64,000 bases of DNA from Limisphaerales bacterium (lineage in GTDB: Bacteria > Patescibacteriota > Microgenomatia > UBA1400 > PJMF01), in contig JBILGT010000004.1 in the NCBI GenBank assembly GCA_044350895.1, forward strand, positions 3,829 to 67,828, given 5' to 3'. Below the pieces are notes generated by a model that did no database searches, was not told where the DNA came from, and worked only from the letters and a program-made list of their open reading frames with translations. Below, one piece after another: positions 15,907 through 51,691 of this stretch (within the stretch, counting starts at the first letter, position 1; each line of letters starts with the position of its first letter). The translations under genes were made by a program, and so were the position numbers.

Positions 15907-16632
15907 TTACGATTCAGTATCTCTTGATAACAAATTTCTTTGTTCAATAAAGAAATCACGCAGCAACCCAATTTCCCGTATGAGGTTTTTTTTCGAATCA
16001 CTACTGTGAAATACAGTATTGTGTTCACTTCCTTGGAAGAGAGAACGAAGTGTTCCGTAGTACCGTGAGGTTTTCAAAACCTTTAAACGCCACTCGGCAC
16101 CAACGTTTTTGCGCCATGTTTCAATTGCATCATTCCCTTCAAGAAATAGCACTGTGGTTGGCCAATGAAGCATAGTATATGCCCATTCATGCCAACGATT
16201 AGGATGTTCGACTTCATATCTAGAAGAGTTTATGGCAGGTTTTCTGAGCTGACGTCTTTGTGCTCCGCCTTTATAAAAATCTTGTAAAAGTGGATAGTCG
16301 AAGATGAGTGAAAAAACTGCAAATGGAAATAATCCTAGGTTGGGTGAAAAAGTGTAATTAATCAATGCTTCTGTTAATTCTGGATCTGATAAACCGGGCT
16401 CAGTATTAAGTAATAAATGTCCATTGTAGCTAATAGCCTCATCCATGCGTGGTTTGATAAGAGCAATTGTTACTTCTCCTTGTTGTAAAGCCGTACTGGA
16501 TGCGACGGAGTCGAGTAGTGAAACAACGGTATTAACTTTGCCAATAAGTGGAAGGGCATCATGATTACTAGTAAGAAAAGTATTCCCTTTATCTGAGTAA
16601 AGTGGTTGGCGTTCAATGAGTGCCTTAGTCAT
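15907..16632 (-). CDS. hypothetical protein (241 aa), co-oriented with and 18 nt upstream of the HxHxQ protein
   Basis: Long ORF with coding-like composition and no recognisable motifs. Confidence 0.5.
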   Translation of the reverse strand: MTKALIERQPLYSDKGNTFLTSNHDALPLIGKVNTVVSLLDSVASSTALQQGEVTIALIKPRMDEAISYNGHLLLNTEPGLSDPELTEALINYTFSPNLGLFPFAVFSLIFDYPLLQDFYKGGAQRRQLRKPAINSSRYEVEHPNRWHEWAYTMLHWPTTVLFLEGNDAIETWRKNVGAEWRLKVLKTSRYYGTLRSLFQGSEHNTVFHSSDSKKNLIREIGLLRDFFIEQRNLLSRDTES

Positions 16633-16887: not shown

Positions 16888-17817
16888 GTGAGCGAAAACG
16901 ATTCATTATTTACCCTTCCATTTACCGTTATAGAACAGCTTGGGACTCGGTCAGAGTTATCCCCTGAAAGATATAAGCCTTCATACATTTCAAGAATTTT
17001 AAATAGAGCAATTGCTCCAGAATTTCATAATCCACAAGCAAGATTTTTGAGGGGTCATTTTTTTATTGAGCCACCAGAACGCTTCTCAACATTAAATTCT
17101 GGCAGCAGAATAACTTTTAATTCAGGTGATAAGCAGGTGGTGCTGGAAGGAATGTCATACCCAGGATCAACTCATGGTAAGGAACTATTTGATCAACTTG
17201 ATGAAAAGGTTTCTAACATAGATGTAAAAAGCTTGAATGAAGAGCAGTTATCAATTGTCGCTGCATTTTTAACTATTTGTAGCGTTACTATTCATCCATT
17301 TCGCGATTCAAATGGCAGAGGAGCAGTAGGATTAGCTGATGTATTTCTCAGATCTAACACAGGTACAACCTTCGATTATGAGAAATTGGTTGAGCATAAT
17401 CAAACTTTAGTTAATTTATTAGTGATTGGTTCATTAAGTTTATTGCCACCCTCCCACAATCCTGAAATATGTGCCATGCAGATGGCCGTTGAGGACAAAT
17501 ATTTGGAAATAAAAATTCCTAACATGCAGAATGCTTCAGTTGAAGAGGTATCAGCATTTCTGAAAGATTTTTCAGATACTATCACCGCATTCATACGAAC
17601 TTTTGATGTGGCTCAAGCCACTGAAAAACCTGCCAGAATATTTGATCCCAACTATAGTATTCATAAGTTGGCGGCACTTTTCAGAGAAGTACATAAACCG
17701 ATCGATAGTCAGGAACGTGTTAAACAGATCCAGGCCAATATAAAAGCTATTTTTCAAGCGGAGCAGGCGTTGCAAAGCAGAACCGCTGAGACACCACCTA
17801 CCGAAGCAGATAAATAG
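16888..17817 (+). CDS. Fic/Doc-family protein (candidate AMPylase/toxin-like)
   Basis: TIHPFRDSNGRGAVGL matches the Fic core HPFx(D/E)GNGR with G replaced by S. A GTG start at 16888 lies 20 nt after the tRNA; the start is uncertain. Confidence 0.5.
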   Translation: MSENDSLFTLPFTVIEQLGTRSELSPERYKPSYISRILNRAIAPEFHNPQARFLRGHFFIEPPERFSTLNSGSRITFNSGDKQVVLEGMSYPGSTHGKELFDQLDEKVSNIDVKSLNEEQLSIVAAFLTICSVTIHPFRDSNGRGAVGLADVFLRSNTGTTFDYEKLVEHNQTLVNLLVIGSLSLLPPSHNPEICAMQMAVEDKYLEIKIPNMQNASVEEVSAFLKDFSDTITAFIRTFDVAQATEKPARIFDPNYSIHKLAALFREVHKPIDSQERVKQIQANIKAIFQAEQALQSRTAETPPTEADK

Positions 17818-20357: not shown

Positions 20358-20978
20358 TTGACTATGGCTCCTCACAAACAAACTCCAAGTGTTAGTTTTC
20401 CAAATGATTCTATTTCCTACACAGTGCCCACTTGGGCAGACATGATGGATGGTATTTTTGATATTTCTCAACAAATTACTGCCAGTAACGAACAGTACGA
20501 TGTAATTGTTACCTTAGCAAAAGGTGGCTTACCGTTATCAAGAATTTTGGCTGATTTTTTACATATTCCGATTATTTTAAGTTTGGGTGTTCGTTTCTAT
20601 ACAGGAATTAGAGAAACTCTTGATAAACCTGAAATTTATCAAGATATATATCCAGTTTCAGGAGTTGCGGGCAAAAAAGTGCTGCTTTTTGATGATGTAG
20701 CAGAGACAGGTGAATCACTTATTTTTGGTGAACAGTATTGCAGAGCATTGGGTGCAGAAAGTGTCACTACAGCTGCAGTGTATATGAAGCCAAAAACTCG
20801 CCATATACCCAAACATTATGCCTTTGAAACAACTGACTGGATTTTATTTCCATTTGAGATTATGGAGTCAGTGAATCAGTTAGACAGCAGGTGGCAAGAA
20901 CAGGGGATTGCTGCTGCTGAACGACAATCACGATTTATAAAAATTGGATGCAAGAAGGAGTGGCTCAATCAAAAATAA
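20358..20978 (+). CDS. type I phosphoribosyltransferase-domain protein
   Basis: VLLFDDVAETGESL is the PRPP-binding motif. Confidence 0.6.
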   Translation: MTMAPHKQTPSVSFPNDSISYTVPTWADMMDGIFDISQQITASNEQYDVIVTLAKGGLPLSRILADFLHIPIILSLGVRFYTGIRETLDKPEIYQDIYPVSGVAGKKVLLFDDVAETGESLIFGEQYCRALGAESVTTAAVYMKPKTRHIPKHYAFETTDWILFPFEIMESVNQLDSRWQEQGIAAAERQSRFIKIGCKKEWLNQK

Positions 20979-20993
20979 TATAGGTAACTATAT

Positions 20994-21092
20994 GATAATG
21001 AGTCGCGAAGGCAAATAGAAGGCTTTCGCTCCCAAGTAACAAACGTTGTCTACCTAAAAAGTAGACAAATAGAAACCAAGTTGAGCAGAAAG
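20994..21092 (+). promoter_or_regulatory. conserved leader element copy 1: -10 box, then TTCGCTCCCAAGTAACAA core, 6-bp hairpin and GAAACCAAGNTGAGCNGAAAG box
   Basis: GATAAT at 20994-20999. Core at 21025-21042. Hairpin GTCTAC/GTAGAC at 21048-21066. 3' box at 21072-21092. The same architecture recurs at 22357-22444. Confidence 0.5.
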
Positions 21093-21095
21093 TCT

Positions 21096-22310
21096 ATGCT
21101 AGCACTACCTGAACGCCAACAACCATTCGTAGATTCCCAACAAGCTGAGCTGGATGCGATTATTCGCAACGAGCAACAACTAAAAGCTGCTCAAGCAGCT
21201 GACCGAAAACGTTCTTACATAGAGCCAGGAATACCTGATGTAGAACGTCAAGTTGATTTGGTGCGCATGAGAGGCTTTGAATTTCAAACGAATCCAGATG
21301 GATCAGAAGTAATTGACATACTATGGCCATCACCGGAAGAGGAGGAAACAGACTATCGTGGTTTTGTTCAAGTAGCGCATCTGTTGTGGCGCAAAAGAAA
21401 TCAATCTGACAAACAGTTTTTTGCTAGCCCAAAATATCGGCACTCAGCCGATCAGGCATTAAGTACTTGGCAACAAGTTGAAGAACTACTAATGGGTGAT
21501 AGCATTTCTCAGACTGGAGTACCATTTTTCCGTAAGTTACATGACCCTTCAATTCCTGTCACTAAAGCTCACACAGGGCGAACTCCAGCTGCTCACATTC
21601 TTGATGTTTTAGAATGTGTGAAATCAGATCATCTGCAATTAGATTTTCGTCGTTTTCTTGTTCGTGTTAATGCTGTTATGCATGATTGGGGCAAGCTGTT
21701 TATTTCTGGCAAGGATATTTATCAGGATCACGCTCATATCAGTTACTATATCGCTCGAAAATTTTTAGCACGTTACTTCATTGAATATTTTGGTGCAACA
21801 CCTGAAATTGCATTTGCTCAAGCCGCAACATTTACATTACCGATTAAGTATCATCATTTACTTGAACAAGTTGAAGAAAATATTCTAACTGAAAAAGAAG
21901 CAGCTCAATTACTGCCCTCAGAAGCTGTGCTTGAGGAGATTGCGACGCTGACGATAGCAGATCGTTTAAGTGTGCGTGGTGGAATGGGCAGATATGCAAT
22001 GTTTGCATTTCTTGTCTTTTTTGGTTATCCACACCTTTTGAAACAGATTGTCACAACAGAAGAAGTTTTGGTGCTGGCGCAGCGATTAAGTGGCCAATGT
22101 TTAGGTGGTGTTGCTGATGTTTTACATTCATCTGATGAGTATCCAAATCTAATTGATAGCATTGCGCTGCCTGTCATCAATGGCATTATGAATTTTCAAG
22201 CTACCAGTGATGGGCTAGTTACGATGCTTAGTCAAAGTGCCTTAGGTACTCACACGGAGCAAGTATCAAACGCTCAGAAAAGCGGACTACTGTATAAAGG
22301 TATAAAGTGA
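21096..22310 (+). CDS. HD-domain-like metal-dependent phosphohydrolase (hypothetical)
   Basis: AAHILDVLECV ... NAVMHDWGKLF matches the H ... HD ... GK spacing of HD domains. The ORF-track TTG start (21081) lies inside the conserved leader box, so ATG 21096 is preferred. Confidence 0.45.
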   Translation: MLALPERQQPFVDSQQAELDAIIRNEQQLKAAQAADRKRSYIEPGIPDVERQVDLVRMRGFEFQTNPDGSEVIDILWPSPEEEETDYRGFVQVAHLLWRKRNQSDKQFFASPKYRHSADQALSTWQQVEELLMGDSISQTGVPFFRKLHDPSIPVTKAHTGRTPAAHILDVLECVKSDHLQLDFRRFLVRVNAVMHDWGKLFISGKDIYQDHAHISYYIARKFLARYFIEYFGATPEIAFAQAATFTLPIKYHHLLEQVEENILTEKEAAQLLPSEAVLEEIATLTIADRLSVRGGMGRYAMFAFLVFFGYPHLLKQIVTTEEVLVLAQRLSGQCLGGVADVLHSSDEYPNLIDSIALPVINGIMNFQATSDGLVTMLSQSALGTHTEQVSNAQKSGLLYKGIK

Positions 22311-22356
22311 TCACATATGTATATTTACAGATACATATGATGCATATATAATAACC

Positions 22357-22444
22357 TATAATAATTAAGTGCGGAACACCAAGTGCTTCGCTCCCAAGTA
22401 ACAACACTTTGCTAGTGCAAAGGGAAACCAAGATGAGCTGAAAG
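22357..22444 (+). promoter_or_regulatory. conserved leader element copy 2
   Basis: TATAAT at 22357-22362. Identical 18-nt core at 22387-22404. Compensatory hairpin CTTTGC/GCAAAG at 22407-22422. 3' box GAAACCAAGATGAGCTGAAAG at 22424-22444. Confidence 0.5.
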
Positions 22445-22470
22445 AATACTGGGTGTTTTTTTGTAACCAA

Positions 22471-23961
22471 ATGGCAAAAATAGAACGTACTGAACGGCTA
22501 GCTCCTCCTACTAATACTGAAATTTTTCAGCAGCTACATAATCTTTTGATCTACTGGCTTTCGCCATCTGAAGTGAGCCAATTACTGGCTCAGATTGCTT
22601 TTAAAGAACTTAGTTCACCAGCATTTTTGCAAGGTATTTCAAGAATAGTAATCGCCTCAAATCCTGAAGGTAAAAAGACTCGAGGGCTGATTCAAGCACT
22701 CCATGGTTACTTTACCCGTGAGGGAGGGACTCCACTTGAAATTGAAGCCCGTGATCCAGAAAAATTATCGGGAAAACTTGAAGTGAGTGTTTCAAGCGCT
22801 GGTCTAGCTGCAAACTGGAAAGTTGATCAAGCACGCCGTGCGATTGCTGGTAATTTTGGTGGTGATACTGTTCTGGTCGGTACTGACACGATTATTTTTG
22901 CTGGAAATGATTCAACTTCAATTGAACGGTTTCCTAACCCAGAACGTGATAGACACTTCGCCCAGATACATGGTTTACCTTGGACTTGGGGAAGTATTAA
23001 AGGACAAGTTGAGAGAGTTGTGAATAAAATTGCGAGCAGAGAAGCAGAGCCTCCAAAGGAAGCCGTGGTCATTGCTCACTGCGTGACCTCATTTGCACGA
23101 AAAGCACTTGCTGAAGATGCTGGTGTACTTTTCAACCTTGGCTATTCTATTCGCACGATCTACTGGGGAATTAAAGAAGAACAGATCTGGAGAGATATCG
23201 AAAAGTATCGGGCAGAAAATACTATTGCCCACATGAACAAGCGACCACCACTGGTAAAACTTGCAGAAGATTATCGCGATCACATCACAGAAGTTGATAT
23301 TACGCACCTTGTTTGTGGTTTGCTGGCTGATACTGTGGGAAACCCCATAACATTTGAAAATAAAGATGGACATGAGGTATTGATGGATCCTGGAAAAGAG
23401 GATCTGAGATTTGTACGTCCTGGTCTGATGTTACAAAATGATGGCAGTATCCAGCTAGTTGATACGTTGGGTGGGGTACAAACACTTACACTTGATAGTT
23501 GTACAACAGGACAGATACTAGGTGTGATTGATGACAGTGGCAAACGCATTTTTTCGGAACCAACTGAACGAGGAATTCGTTTTCTAATCCCAAAACGAGG
23601 ACTTTTACTCACTAAAGTGCGCATGTCTTTGGAAAATGGTACAGTGCGACAGCTTACCTCTCTTGAATCAAACATTCTTAGAACACTAATTGAACAGACG
23701 CAAGCATATGAAAAAGTCCTAGATATCGTAACAAGCTTTATGATCGATGGCATCCCGCCTCAGGTAGTACTTGCAGCATTTCTCGCGAGTGTTGCTGTGC
23801 CACTGCAAGGCAATTCACAGGAAGTAACTGTGATGGGGTACCCTGAACTACTTAAGCCGACTGAGCCTGATGGTTCACCACGCAGAGAGACGCCAACTGA
23901 GAAGGCACAAAGGATTAGAGACGCGTATGTGCGAATGCATGTGGGTAAATATAGTTTTTAA
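22471..23961 (+). CDS. hypothetical protein (about 497 aa)
   Basis: Long ORF with no recognisable motif. Start is ATG 22471 or GTG 22453. Confidence 0.5.
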   Translation: MAKIERTERLAPPTNTEIFQQLHNLLIYWLSPSEVSQLLAQIAFKELSSPAFLQGISRIVIASNPEGKKTRGLIQALHGYFTREGGTPLEIEARDPEKLSGKLEVSVSSAGLAANWKVDQARRAIAGNFGGDTVLVGTDTIIFAGNDSTSIERFPNPERDRHFAQIHGLPWTWGSIKGQVERVVNKIASREAEPPKEAVVIAHCVTSFARKALAEDAGVLFNLGYSIRTIYWGIKEEQIWRDIEKYRAENTIAHMNKRPPLVKLAEDYRDHITEVDITHLVCGLLADTVGNPITFENKDGHEVLMDPGKEDLRFVRPGLMLQNDGSIQLVDTLGGVQTLTLDSCTTGQILGVIDDSGKRIFSEPTERGIRFLIPKRGLLLTKVRMSLENGTVRQLTSLESNILRTLIEQTQAYEKVLDIVTSFMIDGIPPQVVLAAFLASVAVPLQGNSQEVTVMGYPELLKPTEPDGSPRRETPTEKAQRIRDAYVRMHVGKYSF

Positions 23962-27899: not shown

Positions 27900-28802
27900 A
27901 TGCAAAGAAAAATTGGAGCACATGTATCAACCGCTGGTGGACTAGAAAATGGCGTCATTAAAGCGCAGTCAATTGGTTGTAATTGTTTTCAATTATTTTC
28001 TGGTAGTCCACGAATTTGGCAGCGTAAAAAGCTTGCTGAAGTAGAAACTGAAAAATACTTTGCAGAGCGAGAAAAGTGGGGGATAGGTCCAGTTATTACG
28101 CATGCTCTGTACCTCGTCAACCTAGCAAGTGATAAAGCGGAAAATGTACAAAAATCCTTTAATTCTTTGAAATATGAACTGGAATTTGATGCGGCAATTC
28201 AAGGCGGGGGAGTTGTAGTGCATCTGGGCAGTCACCAGGGTAGGGGATGGGCGAGTGCAAAGGATCAAGTTGCGAAAGTCGTGGGTGATCTCCTTCGTGA
28301 AACACCTGAGAATTCTACCTTTTTGATTGAAAATGCCGCCGGTCAGAACGGAAAAGTGGGAGATGATCTGGGAGAGATTAGAGAATTGCTTGAAGTAATT
28401 GAAAAAGATGGTCAGTTTGTTTCCAAAGGGAGAATTGGTTGGTGTTTTGACACCTGTCATGCTCATGCTGCTGGATACTATTTGGGAGAATCTGTTCCTG
28501 AAAACGTAGTGATGGCTGAAAAAATTACTCGGCAGCCACAATCAGCTCTCAAAACAATCTCTGAACAAGGCTTATGGGAAATGCTCAAATGTATTCACGT
28601 CAATGATAGTCGTGATCCATTCGGTAGTGGCAAAGATCGACATGCCAACCTCGGTGATGGTAATATTCCCCAAGAAGATTTACGTCATTTTCTGCACTTT
28701 AGTGAACTAAAGCACATCCCATTAATCCTCGAAGTTCCTGGTTTAGATGGTGAAGGTCCAGATGCAGCTAATGTTGAACGTCTGAAAAAGATTCTTGAGT
28801 AG
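27900..28802 (+). CDS. nfo: endonuclease IV (AP endonuclease, TIM barrel)
   Basis: KIGAHVSTAGG ... CFQLFSGSPRIW and His/Asp/Glu metal ligands (HAHAAGY, HVNDS). Confidence 0.85.
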   Translation: MQRKIGAHVSTAGGLENGVIKAQSIGCNCFQLFSGSPRIWQRKKLAEVETEKYFAEREKWGIGPVITHALYLVNLASDKAENVQKSFNSLKYELEFDAAIQGGGVVVHLGSHQGRGWASAKDQVAKVVGDLLRETPENSTFLIENAAGQNGKVGDDLGEIRELLEVIEKDGQFVSKGRIGWCFDTCHAHAAGYYLGESVPENVVMAEKITRQPQSALKTISEQGLWEMLKCIHVNDSRDPFGSGKDRHANLGDGNIPQEDLRHFLHFSELKHIPLILEVPGLDGEGPDAANVERLKKILE

Positions 28803-30609
28803 CTACTGGTAGTATTGTTTCTTCCAATTCTGACAATTCTTCTGTTTTGTTGTTCAGTTGCAATATGAGAAGGTGTTTCAAAAGCGCGTGGATAGGATTG
28901 GCTGATGGAGAAAGTTCATGTTTGAGAGTTCGCAGCGGCGAGGCCAAATTAACATCTGCAACAAAAATATCATTAAATAAAATTCTTTCAAAAGATGCAC
29001 TTGGAACAAAAATAATCGATAGGAGAGACTGGTACAAATGTCCAATACGAACTTGGTCTGCCTGATTCAAAACTTCGAGGTTCCCAAGATCATCATCTTC
29101 TTTCAGTTTGGATAGAAGGTTATAGTAATCAGCGGCTTGCAGTGCAAATGGATCTTCAGAAAGTGGCAAGCCACACGGTCCCATCACCACTCCATAGTCT
29201 GCATCAAAGTAACATCCCTTACCTGTTAAATATTCAGGCGGGACATACCAGTTTTCACCATTCACAGTGACTTGAACGTATCCTTGCAAATTGCTGAGCA
29301 TTTCACTTTTTTCTTCACCAGATAGTAGCGCAAACGCAGCTCCACCACCTCGAATATCCATTACAGCGGTGCGTGGGATAGTTGGCCTAAATTTAAGCAG
29401 TGAAGTTGGTGTCCCTGTGATACAGTGTGCCCAACTCGCAGCACTTTTGAGCGGTAAAGTGGAACTTAAATTGACGCTTGCAACAAATTTTTTGAGCGCA
29501 GCTTGTTCTTCTTTCTCCAATTTTTCGCCGTTTGATTTTTTAACTTCCAGTTGCCATGCTGTTCTAATCTCTTCAAGATCTATTTGAAAATCCTTTTGCT
29601 TATCGGGGTCATAGTTTAGCGCATGATTTTCTACCCACTTGAGTAGCGTTTTTTTAACTGTGTTGATCAACAAATCAAATGCAACAACTTTTTCAGAATG
29701 TTCACCTGGTTCATGTGCAAGCTGTGTGAATTCTGATAAACAAAATGACAAAACAGTGGCGAGTTGTAGTTGTGCAGCAACTTCTGGAAGATTGGGGAGG
29801 TCTCGATCAATATCACTGCGCCACCTGGCCTTATTCTTATAAATAATTTGTTCGATACGTTCGAGAGCTTGACCAGTTGGGATATGCACCGCAGTGGCAA
29901 TTGTTTGATGGTCAGGATGCACTTCTGTATCAGTGGTAATTCGCTGTAGTCCGCCGCCTGTTTGAGCTGCTACTTCTTTGAGTACAACAGGTAACTGTTT
30001 GTTTGGGTCGTAGCTTCGATACTGCCGGAATAAAAATCCAGTTTCAGTTTTTTCATAAATATTTACAAAGACATAGTTACGCTCATCAAGGCCAGGATAA
30101 AGTTCTTGCTGTGAGCCGCGTGGACTGATAAACATCAAGCGTTCACCAACTTGGACACGATCGCTGCCCATCCAAGCTTCAACATACCTTGCAACTGATT
30201 CTTCAAGTTTTGCGCGCTCAGTGGGCTTGCCATCTTGCTCAAGGCGTTCCACAAAGTTATGAGCAATTTCACTGACTTTCTCCGTATAGCCATTGCGCAT
30301 GCCATGTTGGTCGTACTCATACACTACTGAAGCTCGCAAAAATGCATATTCATCAAAAAAGGAGGTGAGATCGGCTGTGAGTTGATTTGTAACAAGCTGC
30401 TGAGATTCAGCTTCTCGAGAAATATCATATGCTCCAAAGTACCGCTCAGAACCCCAGGTTATAAACTCAGGCTTTTTAAACAACCGTTCAGGCTGCAGCC
30501 CTTGAAGACCTTGGGCAAGAGATTCAAGCCATGAAGGAGTACGAGCTGATAAACGTTCAGCTTTTTCGGGTGGTTTGGAAAATGATTCTGGTGACAAAAA
30601 ACTCCTCAT
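28768..30609 (-). CDS. large hypothetical protein (about 613 aa)
   Basis: Long ORF with an acidic C-terminus and no recognisable motif. The first 46 codons of the ORF-track call translate AT-rich intergenic sequence, so ATG 30609 is preferred. Confidence 0.5.
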   Translation of the reverse strand: MRSFLSPESFSKPPEKAERLSARTPSWLESLAQGLQGLQPERLFKKPEFITWGSERYFGAYDISREAESQQLVTNQLTADLTSFFDEYAFLRASVVYEYDQHGMRNGYTEKVSEIAHNFVERLEQDGKPTERAKLEESVARYVEAWMGSDRVQVGERLMFISPRGSQQELYPGLDERNYVFVNIYEKTETGFLFRQYRSYDPNKQLPVVLKEVAAQTGGGLQRITTDTEVHPDHQTIATAVHIPTGQALERIEQIIYKNKARWRSDIDRDLPNLPEVAAQLQLATVLSFCLSEFTQLAHEPGEHSEKVVAFDLLINTVKKTLLKWVENHALNYDPDKQKDFQIDLEEIRTAWQLEVKKSNGEKLEKEEQAALKKFVASVNLSSTLPLKSAASWAHCITGTPTSLLKFRPTIPRTAVMDIRGGGAAFALLSGEEKSEMLSNLQGYVQVTVNGENWYVPPEYLTGKGCYFDADYGVVMGPCGLPLSEDPFALQAADYYNLLSKLKEDDDLGNLEVLNQADQVRIGHLYQSLLSIIFVPSASFERILFNDIFVADVNLASPLRTLKHELSPSANPIHALLKHLLILQLNNKTEELSELEETILPVATQESFSDVQH

Positions 30610-30927
30610 AGAGAGGAGCACGTGCGTAAGATAAAAATACAGAAAGAATACGCGCGATGCTCGTCGATTCCTGTAAGCATTGAACGCTATACAGAGTATT
30701 TTGAAGACCGGACTTATGAAGATGTACTTCACATACCGTTGCGGCACAGTTCCGGAATTTCACCGGATTCCACAAAATACGTATCATTCTTATAGCAAGT
30801 TGCGAGAGTGTTGTGAAGAGAGAATTTTACTGAGTTCTTATTTAGTTATTATTTTTCATATTTTTTTGCTCGGCAATTAAGTAAAAAAATTGATTAATCA
30901 AAGTAAATATAATTCAAATACCGCTTG

Positions 30928-47354: not shown

Positions 47355-48317
47355 CTAGACTTCTTCTTCTACGTACTCTTCTTGGGTTCTCCATGCAAAG
47401 GTATAGAGTAGCTGTCCTCCACCGAGTAGGAACAGCATGCCAAGCATGAACATAGTGAGTGTTTGATCAAAGCCACTAACAGGCAGTGCACTGGCCGTTG
47501 AGGTCTTAGTTACACAAGTACAGCTTGTGTCACTTGAACAACGTGAATCACGGCATTTACCAGCCATACAGGTTAAGTTTGTGGCACAGTCACGATTTGC
47601 AACACAGTCGCCATTGCAGCTCACTAGTGCTGGTGTCGCGCTTGGAGTTGGTGTTGGTCTAGCACTCGGCGTTGGGGTTGGAGTTGCACTTGGAGTTGGT
47701 GTCGGTGTTGTTGTAGCAGCATTGATTGTTACTGCAAGTGTGCCACGAGGAATTGCCGCGACATCTTCTCCAGTTGTTTTATCAAAGATAGTTGTTTGTG
47801 CAGAGGCAAAGCTGAATGTCGAGACCTGGGCAGTTGCTGCTGAGTCTGCTTTTAGTTTAAATGAAAATAAATCTGTTGGTACTGAATTGGAATATCCTTG
47901 TACAATCACACAACCAAATTCGAGTGTCGCTGTTCCTGAACCAGGAATAAAGGTACTTGTTGGACAGCTCCAGTTCACTAATACAGGGTTTAGTTTAATA
48001 TCGGTAGGATCAACGGTGAGTGGTGCAGTATTGCCAGTATACGTATAGGTTAGTCGTACCCCAACAGCAGAGATTCTGGAGCCTTTTGTATTGAACGTAA
48101 CTGTTGAGGTTCCATTTTCACCTGGTCTAATCGAAAGTGCTGGCTGCTTAAATGCAACTTCTGCAGTACCACCAGGAACTGATGCTTTTGTAGTCGTCTC
48201 TTGTGGCTGATTCATGTACTGCATGAACACAATCACACCAACGAGCAAGGCAATTACACCTAGAACACTCAGAATGACAGCTGGACTCTTTACTGAAAAT
48301 GTCATAATGCGTACCAC
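47355..48317 (-). CDS. surface protein: N-terminal anchor, cohesin-like beta-sandwich domain, PT-repeat linker, Cys-rich module, C-terminal LPVSG plus hydrophobic tail
   Basis: VGVRLTYTYTGNTAPLTVDPTDI resembles the cohesin core (DFVFRYDPNVLEIIGIDP). Linker TPTPTPSATPTPTPSARPTPTPSATP. Eleven Cys in a 45-aa stretch. C-terminus ALPVSGFDQTL then transmembrane then WRTQEE. Confidence 0.45.
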   Translation of the reverse strand: MVRIMTFSVKSPAVILSVLGVIALLVGVIVFMQYMNQPQETTTKASVPGGTAEVAFKQPALSIRPGENGTSTVTFNTKGSRISAVGVRLTYTYTGNTAPLTVDPTDIKLNPVLVNWSCPTSTFIPGSGTATLEFGCVIVQGYSNSVPTDLFSFKLKADSAATAQVSTFSFASAQTTIFDKTTGEDVAAIPRGTLAVTINAATTTPTPTPSATPTPTPSARPTPTPSATPALVSCNGDCVANRDCATNLTCMAGKCRDSRCSSDTSCTCVTKTSTASALPVSGFDQTLTMFMLGMLFLLGGGQLLYTFAWRTQEEYVEEEV

Positions 48318-50695: not shown

Positions 50696-51691
50696 CTAAC
50701 TATAATTTCTACCAAAAGCACCAACAAGTTTGTTGTAGTCAAAAATATCTACATCACCATCACCATCAATATCCGCGGGTGTGAAACATTTTGCACCTGC
50801 TTTGCCAAAATCACCCACCATTTTATTGTAATCAAAAATATCTACATCTTTGTCATTATCTAGATCACCAACATTTGTGCCGCCACACTGTAAAGCTGTA
50901 GAAAGATCGGAGAAAATCAAGTTAAATGCCCCTTCTCTGCCCATAAACCAACCAGTATCTGTGACAACCGGCGGAGCCTTTTCAAGCGTATCAAATGCTT
51001 TTATCATTCCATTTTGAGTTGTGTCACTCACTCCAGCGAAACTCACCACCCCACCATTGATATACATTCCAATTTTAGGAACACCGGTACCATTGATATA
51101 TTTTGTCGTGTCAGCTGGAATAAGTGTTTTTATTACTCTGTTTGTCCCACCCTCAAGTATTTCAATTTTTGTGATGGTTACGCCTCGGTCCAAATTTAAG
51201 CCTGGATTCCAGTAGTCATTATGAAATACATATGAAAGTTTGGTATATCGAGTATTAGTGTCATTTGTATATGGCAGGAATGTTAAGTTTGCAGTTGGGA
51301 CGACGAGATCTTTACTAAAGGTGGCTGCAGATACTTCAAATTCTTCAAGGAGTTTTTCTCTATAAATGTTTGGTCTACCACATGATGGTTCTGGGAAAGT
51401 TGGATTTGGATAGTTTGGTTGCAACTGAGTACAGTCTCCATAATCTTGCAGACCATCATAGTTAAACCCATTGTTTAAGTAGACTGCAACTCGTGGCCAA
51501 GGACTTGATGCTGTGCCGTATGGAGGGGTGGGTTCTTGTGCTGGGGTAGCTTGAAAGGTAGTGCGAACAATGACGGTGCCATTTGCGGTTTGAGCGTGTA
51601 CAACAGGTGCACTTACAGCAAAAACACATGCCAAAAAGCACGTCACTTTGAGAATTGTTGTTTGTAAATGCCAACTACTACTTTTTCTCAC
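50696..51691 (-). CDS. secreted protein with C-terminal tandem dockerin-type calcium-binding repeats
   Basis: Signal peptide. C-terminus DLDNDKDVDIFDYNKMVGDFG and DIDGDGDVDIFDYNKLVGAFG follow DxDxDGxxxxxD loops plus a helix. Confidence 0.55.
   Translation of the reverse strand: MRKSSSWHLQTTILKVTCFLACVFAVSAPVVHAQTANGTVIVRTTFQATPAQEPTPPYGTASSPWPRVAVYLNNGFNYDGLQDYGDCTQLQPNYPNPTFPEPSCGRPNIYREKLLEEFEVSAATFSKDLVVPTANLTFLPYTNDTNTRYTKLSYVFHNDYWNPGLNLDRGVTITKIEILEGGTNRVIKTLIPADTTKYINGTGVPKIGMYINGGVVSFAGVSDTTQNGMIKAFDTLEKAPPVVTDTGWFMGREGAFNLIFSDLSTALQCGGTNVGDLDNDKDVDIFDYNKMVGDFGKAGAKCFTPADIDGDGDVDIFDYNKLVGAFGRNYS

Follow-up and report, generated by a model that had tools for sequence, protein, structure and literature searches.

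A candidate riboswitch class in the leaders of nucleotide-salvage genes of Microgenomates-type Patescibacteria

Two direct copies of a structured leader RNA, 1362 nt apart with one gene between them, were studied in a 64-kb stretch of contig JBILGT010000004.1 (hereafter the window; labels of the form L0xx, e.g., L001 and L013, denote the other loci compared with it). The element is very probably a functional cis-regulatory structured RNA. With moderate confidence, it is considered to be a small-molecule riboswitch acting as an off switch. We favor, more cautiously, a fuller reading in which it represents a new riboswitch class of the candidate phyla radiation (CPR)/Patescibacteria, of Microgenomates type, with a rod-shaped aptamer (helix P1, internal loop, helix P2) whose CCAAG/CCAAG core senses a purine-derived metabolite, whose closing helix serves as the terminator, and whose 5′ anti-P1 hairpin serves as the antiterminator. 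Such an RNA would be a master cis-regulator of nucleotide scavenging in bacteria without de novo nucleotide synthesis, and would tie HD-domain, Maf-like, and unannotated protein families to that pathway. The preliminary description of the window had proposed a cis-acting structured leader from two copies, and this proposal is now supported by 53 further copies, covariation in the helices, two predicted expression platforms, a coherent set of salvage genes downstream, and the absence of an Rfam match.

A conserved rod with covarying helices

The two sequence boxes on which the element was first recognized are specific to it within the window. The 18-mer TTCGCTCCCAAGTAACAA is identical at 21025-21042 and 22387-22404 and has no other site (0.02 matches expected in shuffles, with up to 3 mismatches allowed), and the near-identical second box, GAAACCAAGNTGAGCNGAAAG, is likewise found exactly twice, at 21072-21092 and 22424-22444 (0.02 expected). 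Between the boxes, hairpins of unlike sequence do stand at the matching place, as had been described (TTGTCTAC/GTAGACAA at 21046-21068 and CTTTGC/GCAAAG at 22407-22422). The earlier account did not include the pairing of the boxes with each other: TTCGCTC pairs with GAGCnGAA, forming helix P1 around the hairpin. Its estimate of about 70 nt is too short, as conservation continues about 20 nt further upstream, to CGCGAAGGC (21004) and TGCGGAACACC (22370), and the full element measures about 92-93 nt in each copy. In the fold of copy 1, GGCUUUCGCUC pairs with GAGC-A-GAAAGUC, with z scores of -4.8 to -5.3 against dinucleotide shuffles. A covariance-model search of the window with filters off returned these two copies in the 64 kb and no more.

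More copies were obtained from related genomes. When 185,579 species-representative genomes were searched with a two-box pattern, 23 loci matched, and a comparable pattern scan of JGI metagenomes yielded 21. Covariance model R1, seeded with eight copies and a hand-drawn structure and applied with a cut-off of E<0.001, scores 55 copies (51 of them distinct), which adds 53 to the two in the window; seven were found by the model without the loop-requiring pattern. Two pattern matches, L018 and L036, were dropped as chance occurrences, having unconserved flanks and scores of about 15 bits. Viral contigs gave no match to the element. On L001 and L002, short contigs that encode relatives of the 404-aa protein following copy 1, the RNA lies at the same places and the hairpin sequences are new again.

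In overall architecture, an outer helix P0 encloses P1, which in turn holds the hairpin P2 and a near-invariant internal loop, with the sequence UCCCAAGNAAC(A/G)A on its 5′ side and GGANACCAAGN(N) on its 3′ side. UCCCAAGNAAC is invariant in all 51 distinct copies, and GGANACCAAG is conserved across copies, varying only in its fourth base and in the 1-2 nt before GAGC, and P2 is free in both sequence and length. About 20 nt upstream lies the segment (U/C/A)GCGRARRCACC; on the 3′ side of P1, 5-10 free bases are followed by GGUGYY and then by 5-8 U. The CACC-type and GGUG-type segments pair to form P0, stacked under P1, and a U-run follows directly in 48 of the 51 distinct copies, including copy 2 of the window. 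The parts of the two window copies, all on the plus strand, are as follows.

21004..21095, plus strand: copy 1 leader RNA, the predicted translational variant, with neither P0 3′ strand nor U-run (model R1 match 21004-21110, 44.7 bits, E=3e-9)
21005..21012, plus strand: copy 1 segment A, GCGAAGGC, complementary to the P1 5′ strand (nascent fold)
21021..21031, plus strand: copy 1 P1 5′ strand, GGCTTTCGCTC (minimum free energy (MFE) structure; P1 covariation)
21032..21045, plus strand: copy 1 internal-loop strand J1/2, CCAAGTAACAAACG (loop conservation)
21046..21068, plus strand: copy 1 P2 hairpin, TTGTCTAC/GTAGACAA with a 7-nt loop (fold; covariation)
21069..21082, plus strand: copy 1 internal-loop strand J2/1, ATAGAAACCAAGTT (loop conservation)
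21083..21094, plus strand: copy 1 P1 3′ strand, GAGC-A-GAAAGTC, at positions -2 to -13 before the start codon (ensemble pairing)
22370..22462, plus strand: copy 2 leader RNA, the predicted transcription-termination variant (model R1, 85.2 bits, E=4e-20; nested P0+P1+P2, MFE -24.5 kcal/mol)
22371..22380, plus strand: copy 2 5′ segment, in which GCGGA (22371-22375) can pair with TTCGC of P1 and GGAACACC (22373-22380) is the P0 5′ strand
22382..22393, plus strand: copy 2 P1 5′ strand, AGTGCTTCGCTC (fold; covariation)
22394..22406, plus strand: copy 2 J1/2, CCAAGTAACAACA (loop conservation)
22407..22422, plus strand: copy 2 P2 hairpin, CTTTGC-TAGT-GCAAAG (fold; covariation)
22423..22434, plus strand: copy 2 J2/1, GGAAACCAAGAT (loop conservation)
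22435..22450, plus strand: copy 2 P1 3′ strand, GAGC-T-GAAAG...TACT (fold; covariation)
22452..22462, plus strand: copy 2 P0 3′ strand, GGTGTTTT, running into U7 and terminator-like (fold)

The structure-preserving covariation first claimed from two copies is borne out in the larger alignment. Among the 51 distinct copies, in an alignment fitted to the model, standard pairs occupy 90.5% of pair cells, against 37-58% when the partners are slid by 1-3 columns. Compensatory changes on both sides were observed in 20 of 23 pairs (P0 8/8, outer P1 5/6, inner P1 2/4, P2 5/5), and none of 500 shuffles reached any of five covariation measures. A conserved, structured, aptamer-type fold is maintained by compensatory changes. 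An initial treatment of the raw copies with MAFFT and RNAalifold had recovered only four invariant P1 pairs, because the variable P2 was misaligned, and was replaced by the hand-annotated seed with covariance-model realignment. In L001 (733-838), the orthologue of copy 1 has a different P2 sequence.

A less biased sample was drawn from seven loci that carry 39-43%-identical homologues of the phosphoribosyltransferase (PRT) encoded just upstream of copy 1, and these were searched with model filters off. The RNA is present in four of the seven, and UCCCAAGNAAC and GGANACCAAG are kept in those four. In these copies GAAAC has become GAUAC or GACAC and one base before GAGC is lost; two of them have replaced the inner P1 pairing GCUC/GAGC by AUUC/GAAU, a compensatory change that leaves the loops intact. 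Three copies found by the model only (L023 2427-2529, L026 1334-1441, and L047 990-1097) have GGAGACC and a G-U pair in P1. Because the PRT-sampled and model-only copies keep the loop, its conservation is not merely an artefact of the search. Both strands of the internal loop read CCAAG (21032-21036 and 21076-21080 in copy 1; 22394-22398 and 22428-22432 in copy 2), giving the core a quasi two-fold symmetry. This could reflect a symmetric ligand, a dimeric binder, or merely tandem non-canonical A-G/A-A pairs.

Seen in the window alone, two direct copies around one gene might suggest att-like direct repeats of mobile DNA or a functionless chance duplication. The wider family is of another kind. 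Compensatory changes have preserved the structure in 55 copies from diverged genomes, and in most genomes the element occurs once, at a syntenic site. No recombinase lies beside or between the copies, neither an integrase nor a transposase is found nearby in the window, and every copy has the orientation of the gene that follows it. We regard this explanation as refuted.

Wherever context is visible, contigs with the element share a common CPR-type gene order. Their record titles name Patescibacteria, Paceibacterota, and Pacebacteria, and many others name Pseudomonadales or Methylococcaceae; homologues of the neighboring PRT are named Pacebacteria and Beckwithbacteria, of the Microgenomates group. 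The metagenome-assembled genomes L005-L012, L015, L017, L018, and L020-L024 are titled “uncultured Pseudomonadales bacterium,” “Methylococcaceae,” or “Gammaproteobacteria” despite a CPR-type order, and these titles are probably taxonomic mislabels or reflect mis-binned contigs. The element is most likely restricted to Microgenomates-type CPR bacteria.

Several loci carry two complete copies in tandem, at a distance of about 290 nt and both provided with a U-run (L009 1513-1903, L010 4419-4832, L023 2427-2840, L026 989-1441, L029 159-602, L035, and L047). Behind the first copy there is no gene but AT-rich DNA that contains conserved promoter-like blocks. The second copies belong to a subtype in which the spacer CACUAGGUC separates A from P1 and a long P2 has the conserved apex UUUCCCUCAGAGAAA.

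Predicted expression platforms and alternative pairings

The two window copies have different expression platforms, because copy 2 ends in P0 and U7 and copy 1 ends at the start codon. In copy 2, the helix P0 (22373-22380 with 22452-22459) merges into U7 (22456-22462), the makeup of an intrinsic terminator, which copy 1 lacks. The terminator stem of copy 2 encloses about 70 nt, which is atypical, and a simple terminator scanner did not list it. The preliminary description had both copies ending just before a start codon; this is correct for copy 1, which leaves one base before the ATG at 21096, and incorrect for copy 2, where P0 and U7 intervene and end 8 nt before the ATG at 22471. Copy 1 and its L001 orthologue are the sole copies that possess A, P1, the loop, and P2 and have neither a P0 3′ strand nor a U-run. 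L005 was also scored without a U-run, but its U-run lies past the truncated model match.

In the predicted ensemble of copy 1, the 12 nt before the AUG are paired at 0.91-0.99, except for one bulged A (0.06), and the AUG itself is paired at 0.14-0.45. A P0-like helix over this AUG was considered and dropped, since its pairing varies with the fragment folded and the AUG is only weakly paired. The proposal for copy 1 is limited to a predicted occlusion of the 12 nt preceding the AUG. The use of one aptamer-like core with a transcriptional platform at some sites and a translational platform at others is a classic riboswitch trait.

Segment A (GCGRARRC), at the 5′ end, is complementary to the P1 5′ strand, B (GCUUUCGC), and also overlaps the P0 5′ strand. 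For both window copies, RNAfold of the initial 30-75 nt gives an A:B hairpin (-11.6 kcal/mol in copy 1 and -7.5 kcal/mol in copy 2), and copy 2 at full length folds as P0+P1+P2, all nested, at -24.5 kcal/mol. Across the family, the MFE structure of the nascent fragment is A:B in 49 of the 51 distinct copies, the two exceptions being matches truncated at the 5′ end, and the full-length MFE structure includes P1 in 48 of 51. A:B positions are paired in 90.9% of cases over the 51 distinct copies, vs. 36-62% when slid. By these folds, the RNA is predicted to have two mutually exclusive states, A:B, which blocks P1 and P0, and P0+P1+P2 followed by the U residues, the latter resembling an intrinsic terminator in which the entire element makes up the stem. 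An expression platform with mutually exclusive structures, as expected of a riboswitch, is predicted.

A mechanism can be proposed on this basis. During transcription, the A:B hairpin would form first and hold P1 open; if it persisted, P0 could not form and the polymerase would read through into the gene, which is the outcome proposed when no effector is present. An effector bound at the conserved internal loop would close P1 and displace A, and the freed A would pair with the GGUG...UUU strand. The resulting P0-P1-P2 rod would act as an intrinsic terminator, turning the gene off. In copy 1 and its L001 orthologue, where the P0 3′ strand and the U-run are lost, closure of P1 would instead block translation initiation. 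Both the role of an effector and the off, rather than on, direction are inferred, the direction being suggested by the architecture.

Hexamers resembling a -10 box occur shortly upstream of most copies, and those of copy 2 are given below.

22324..22362, plus strand: predicted promoter-like elements of copy 2, TTTACA-17-TATAAT at 22324-22352 (11/12 of the sigma-70 consensus for this first pair) and a second TATAAT at 22357-22362, 7 nt before the element

The true start is ambiguous because the two -10-like boxes overlap, and the transcript may begin up to about 20 nt further upstream. A recurrent arrangement of TATAAT, 4-6 nt, and CCTATA(A/T)AA was seen before the element in the window (22345-22366) and in L017, L027, L015, L012, and L006.

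One alternative is nucleotide sensing by the polymerase itself rather than by an aptamer. As known from pyrC and pyrG, this would involve reiterative transcription or a switch of start site, which would determine whether the 5′-terminal GCG is present and hence whether A:B can form. Segment A is at the predicted extreme 5′ end, as a conserved (U/C/A)GCG a few nucleotides after the -10-like boxes, and the regulon is one of nucleotide metabolism. Such sensing would have no need of some 25 invariant loop nucleotides or of a covarying P2, it leaves the loop conservation of the translational variant unexplained, and the distance from the -10-like box to the element ranges from 0 to 19 nt. This alternative is considered highly improbable.

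The element might also be an independent small RNA gene, complete with promoter and terminator, that acts in trans or on a protein and neighbors salvage genes only through inherited synteny; this is slightly less improbable, though still very unlikely. It would account for the -10-like box just upstream, the pairing of the 5′ and 3′ ends, and the U-run closing the unit, as well as for the tandem loci L009, L010, L023, L026, and L029, where the first copy is separated from the second by some 190 nt of AT-rich DNA and has no gene directly after it. Of 44 scorable copies, however, 22 have a downstream open reading frame (ORF) that begins no more than 30 nt after the U-run (median distance 31 nt; copy 2 of the window 8 nt). 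So short a gap leaves no room for a separate promoter, and the gene must be expressed by read-through. Furthermore, copy 1 and its orthologue, which have no terminator, extend up to the start codon, and copies in non-syntenic contexts still lie upstream of nucleotide-metabolism genes on the same strand. The riboswitch-type leader is the reading retained below.

Downstream genes and the neighboring phosphoribosyltransferase

First downstream genes were identified by clustering the ORFs around the copies, followed by Pfam scans. In all copies, the element is on the same strand as its gene and upstream of it, and non-syntenic contexts also occur. The genes or operons that follow it are listed here.

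Divergent HD-domain proteins, including the 404-aa protein of the window: about 16 loci, with invariant H...HD..K...H...H
Maf-like proteins: 5 loci
Unannotated 240-314-aa family F16: 3 loci
Adenosine deaminase - IMPDH/GMP reductase - GMP synthase operons: L013, L039, L034, and L006
PRT alone, or PRT then deoxynucleoside kinase and GMP synthase: L050, L055, L011, L041, and L025
SLOG/LOG - PRT - deoxynucleoside kinase - HD - purine nucleoside phosphorylase - IMPDH-like operon: L032
Unknown proteins, including the 496-aa protein of the window: several loci

A UPRT-like PRT and DUF488 are also among the genes linked to the element. The further copies precede functionally linked genes, and the shared theme is nucleotide salvage, that of purines above all. 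The element lies in cis, in the 5′ leaders of genes with a common metabolic theme, as riboswitches do. The gene set is the only guide to the effector, for which a purine base, nucleoside, or nucleotide, e.g., a guanine-type end product, is the most probable candidate. Guanine riboswitches control xpt, guaA, and related genes, and an off direction with a purine-type ligand fits that pattern.

In the window, the layout is PRT - RNA - gene - RNA - gene, with these genes:

20364..20978, plus strand: upstream neighbor, a 6-oxopurine-type PRT (Pfam Pribosyltran, E=7e-16)
21096..22310, plus strand: gene after copy 1, encoding the 404-aa divergent HD-domain protein (homologue P0002 carries Pfam HD)
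22471..23961, plus strand: gene after copy 2, an ORF encoding the 496-aa protein and starting 8 nt after the U-run

The HD-domain-like character earlier ascribed to the gene after copy 1 is supported by the Pfam HD match in P0002 and by the motif residues of the family, whose alignment has invariant H167, H196-D197, K200, H212, and H253; five of its 10 members match PF01966. The 404-aa protein has almost no relatives, and those on L001 and L002 are 58-59% identical to it. Against PDB, the family profile gave one marginal match, near the HD motif only, to an HD-GYP cGAMP phosphodiesterase (E=0.034). The gene after copy 2 had been called an unknown, and indeed the 496-aa protein matches no Pfam or NCBIfam family, has only two homologues besides an identical sequence, and shows no similarity by BLASTP to the Maf-like and F16 families.

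The order lgt - lspA - rluD-like - PRT - (RNA - gene) - glyA is common to many loci. In L051, the lgt-lspA-rluD-PRT order is present with glyA directly after PRT, and the RNA is absent. Because L051 has the same order without them, the RNA and its gene behave as a module.

The PRT itself suggests another regulator. Its gene immediately precedes the RNA in about half of the loci and immediately follows it in five; this adjacency resembles a PyrR arrangement and makes a protein effector plausible. In a PyrR-style mechanism, the PRT or another protein, loaded with a nucleotide, would bind the loop and close P1, leading to termination in copy 2 or to occlusion of the start site in copy 1. The Bacillus pyr operon has the layout pyrR - attenuator - pyrP - attenuator - pyrB, which the window layout mimics, and CCAAG on both loop strands would offer a quasi-symmetric site readable by a dimer. 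Nevertheless, this PRT is nearest to catalytic 6-oxopurine PRTs, its closest solved relative being the Sulfolobus purine PRT GpT-2 (4z1o, E=1e-26), and it has no PyrR match in PDB (E<=0.01) or NCBIfam (E<=0.1); nor does the Rfam PyrR model match the RNA. The lgt-lspA-rluD-PRT-glyA order is kept without the RNA in L051, so the adjacency may be plain synteny, and at least a dozen loci have the RNA and no PRT in the stretch examined. Control by a PRT or another protein is considered unlikely, though it is the most probable of the alternatives to the small-molecule riboswitch.

Some further observations also weigh against the riboswitch reading as proposed. Most copies were gathered by patterns that require the loop, and the unbiased part of the loop invariance consists of the seven model-only copies. 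The pair counts represent an upper view, because an alignment fitted to the model favors the structure. Covariation in A:B is weak and found mainly in one column pair, and 121 of 500 shuffles reach an equal number of covarying pairs. The P0-P1-P2 state is predicted at -22 to -48 kcal/mol, vs. -2 to -14 kcal/mol for A:B; because the terminator state is far more stable, any ligand dependence must be kinetic. The variable spacing of the predicted -10-like box, noted above, counts here as well. AlphaFold models of the 404-aa and 496-aa proteins, built from 3-sequence alignments, reach a predicted local distance difference test score (pLDDT) of 42 and were unusable, and the functions assigned to these proteins are uncertain.

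Three observations on the neighborhood may be added. A 241-aa protein encoded at 15907-16632 (minus strand) of the window has a match, in its C-terminal part only, to nucleoside diphosphate kinase, and a 309-aa Fic/DOC-domain protein is encoded at 16888-17817 (plus strand); the two flank a tRNA-Leu just upstream of lgt-lspA-rluD-PRT. At L049 (2096-3034; Patescibacteria), a locus with no copy of the RNA, thymidylate synthase is split into three consecutive short ORFs adjoining DHFR and a PRT homologue. The split gene could be a pseudogene or the result of frameshifts or an assembly error.

Relation to known RNAs and significance

Rfam 15 has no family that matches the element at gathering score, in the window or at 19 further loci, and at E<=10 it gave noise only on three stretches (window 20900-22600, L013 3400-3540, and L010 4400-4850). 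On these stretches, no match at E<=10 was obtained with RF00167 (the purine riboswitch and its variants; the present element is a single rod), RF03054 (xanthine-I, or NMT1), or RF00515 (PyrR-binding RNA). The literature searched, with subscription papers and unindexed supplements outside its reach, contains no description of the element or of a Patescibacteria-specific riboswitch. The earlier failure to place the element in a known class by eye agrees with both searches. It is apparently an undescribed class within a known kind, the riboswitch-type or attenuator-type leaders.

Several known systems resemble it in part. Like the purine riboswitch RF00167, together with its xanthine-II, guanine-II, and 2′-deoxyguanosine variants, it lies in the 5′ leaders of genes that salvage and interconvert purines (PRT, guaA, IMPDH-type) and combines a conserved core with freely varying helices; RF00167 is usually an off switch working through an intrinsic terminator. 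Unlike RF00167, which is a three-way junction with kissing loops and a separate downstream terminator hairpin, the element is a single rod of P0-P1, internal loop, and P2, in which the extended P1 would itself be the terminator and the 5′-terminal hairpin on the P1 5′ strand the antiterminator. The xanthine-I riboswitch (NMT1 motif) is a small rod-like aptamer with two helices flanking a conserved purine-binding internal loop, and the element likewise is a rod with a conserved internal loop between helices. The loop sequences differ, however, and NMT1 is found mainly in Proteobacteria with purine-oxidation and transporter genes, whereas the element is found in CPR bacteria only, with salvage, HD, and Maf genes. 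Guanine-II and xanthine-II riboswitches are themselves variants of the three-way-junction purine class (PMC9295807, PMC12445698).

The element shares with the PyrR attenuators (RF00515) its repetition before and between nucleotide-metabolism genes, a PRT-fold protein among them, and a choice between terminator and antiterminator. It differs in having two alternative structures rather than three, in serving purine or general salvage rather than pyrimidine synthesis, and in a PRT that resembles catalytic 6-oxopurine enzymes. The ykkC-subtype 2 riboswitches (for phosphoribosyl pyrophosphate (PRPP), ppGpp, and ADP/CDP) and the ZTP riboswitches also accompany purine and nucleotide-metabolism genes, nucleotide hydrolases included; their folds are unrelated, the element has no Rfam match to them, and they are mostly on switches, whereas the present architecture suggests an off switch.

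Two other features of the window were observed. An adenosylcobalamin (AdoCbl) riboswitch aptamer lies at 30647-30798 (minus strand; 66 bits vs. a gathering score of 50), upstream of a minus-strand ORF of about 600 aa (within 28768-30747) that belongs to no obvious family and would be an unusual B12-controlled gene for a reduced genome. GT-rich repeats with a period of 12/24 nt (TTGGAGTTGGTGTTGG...) occur at 47631-47714, and also at 50712-50866, with a 62-nt direct repeat 93 nt apart; these repeats probably encode repetitive protein segments.

The rod described here is a compact new aptamer candidate with an unusual platform, an extended P1 as terminator and a 5′ anti-P1 hairpin as antiterminator. 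CPR/Patescibacteria are thought to scavenge nucleotides from host cells. A review notes that regulation in Patescibacteria is largely unexplored, and calls for inducible-expression tools, mentioning synthetic riboswitches as desirable (PMC11665869). If the element is controlled by a ligand, it would be a native switch suited to inducible expression in these bacteria. It also would give pathway context to unannotated families, including the 404-aa HD-like and 496-aa proteins of the window. A leader shared by PRT, guaA, IMPDH/GMP reductase, adenosine deaminase, nucleoside kinase and phosphorylase, HD, and Maf genes would give a handle on how these bacteria gauge their nucleotide supply.

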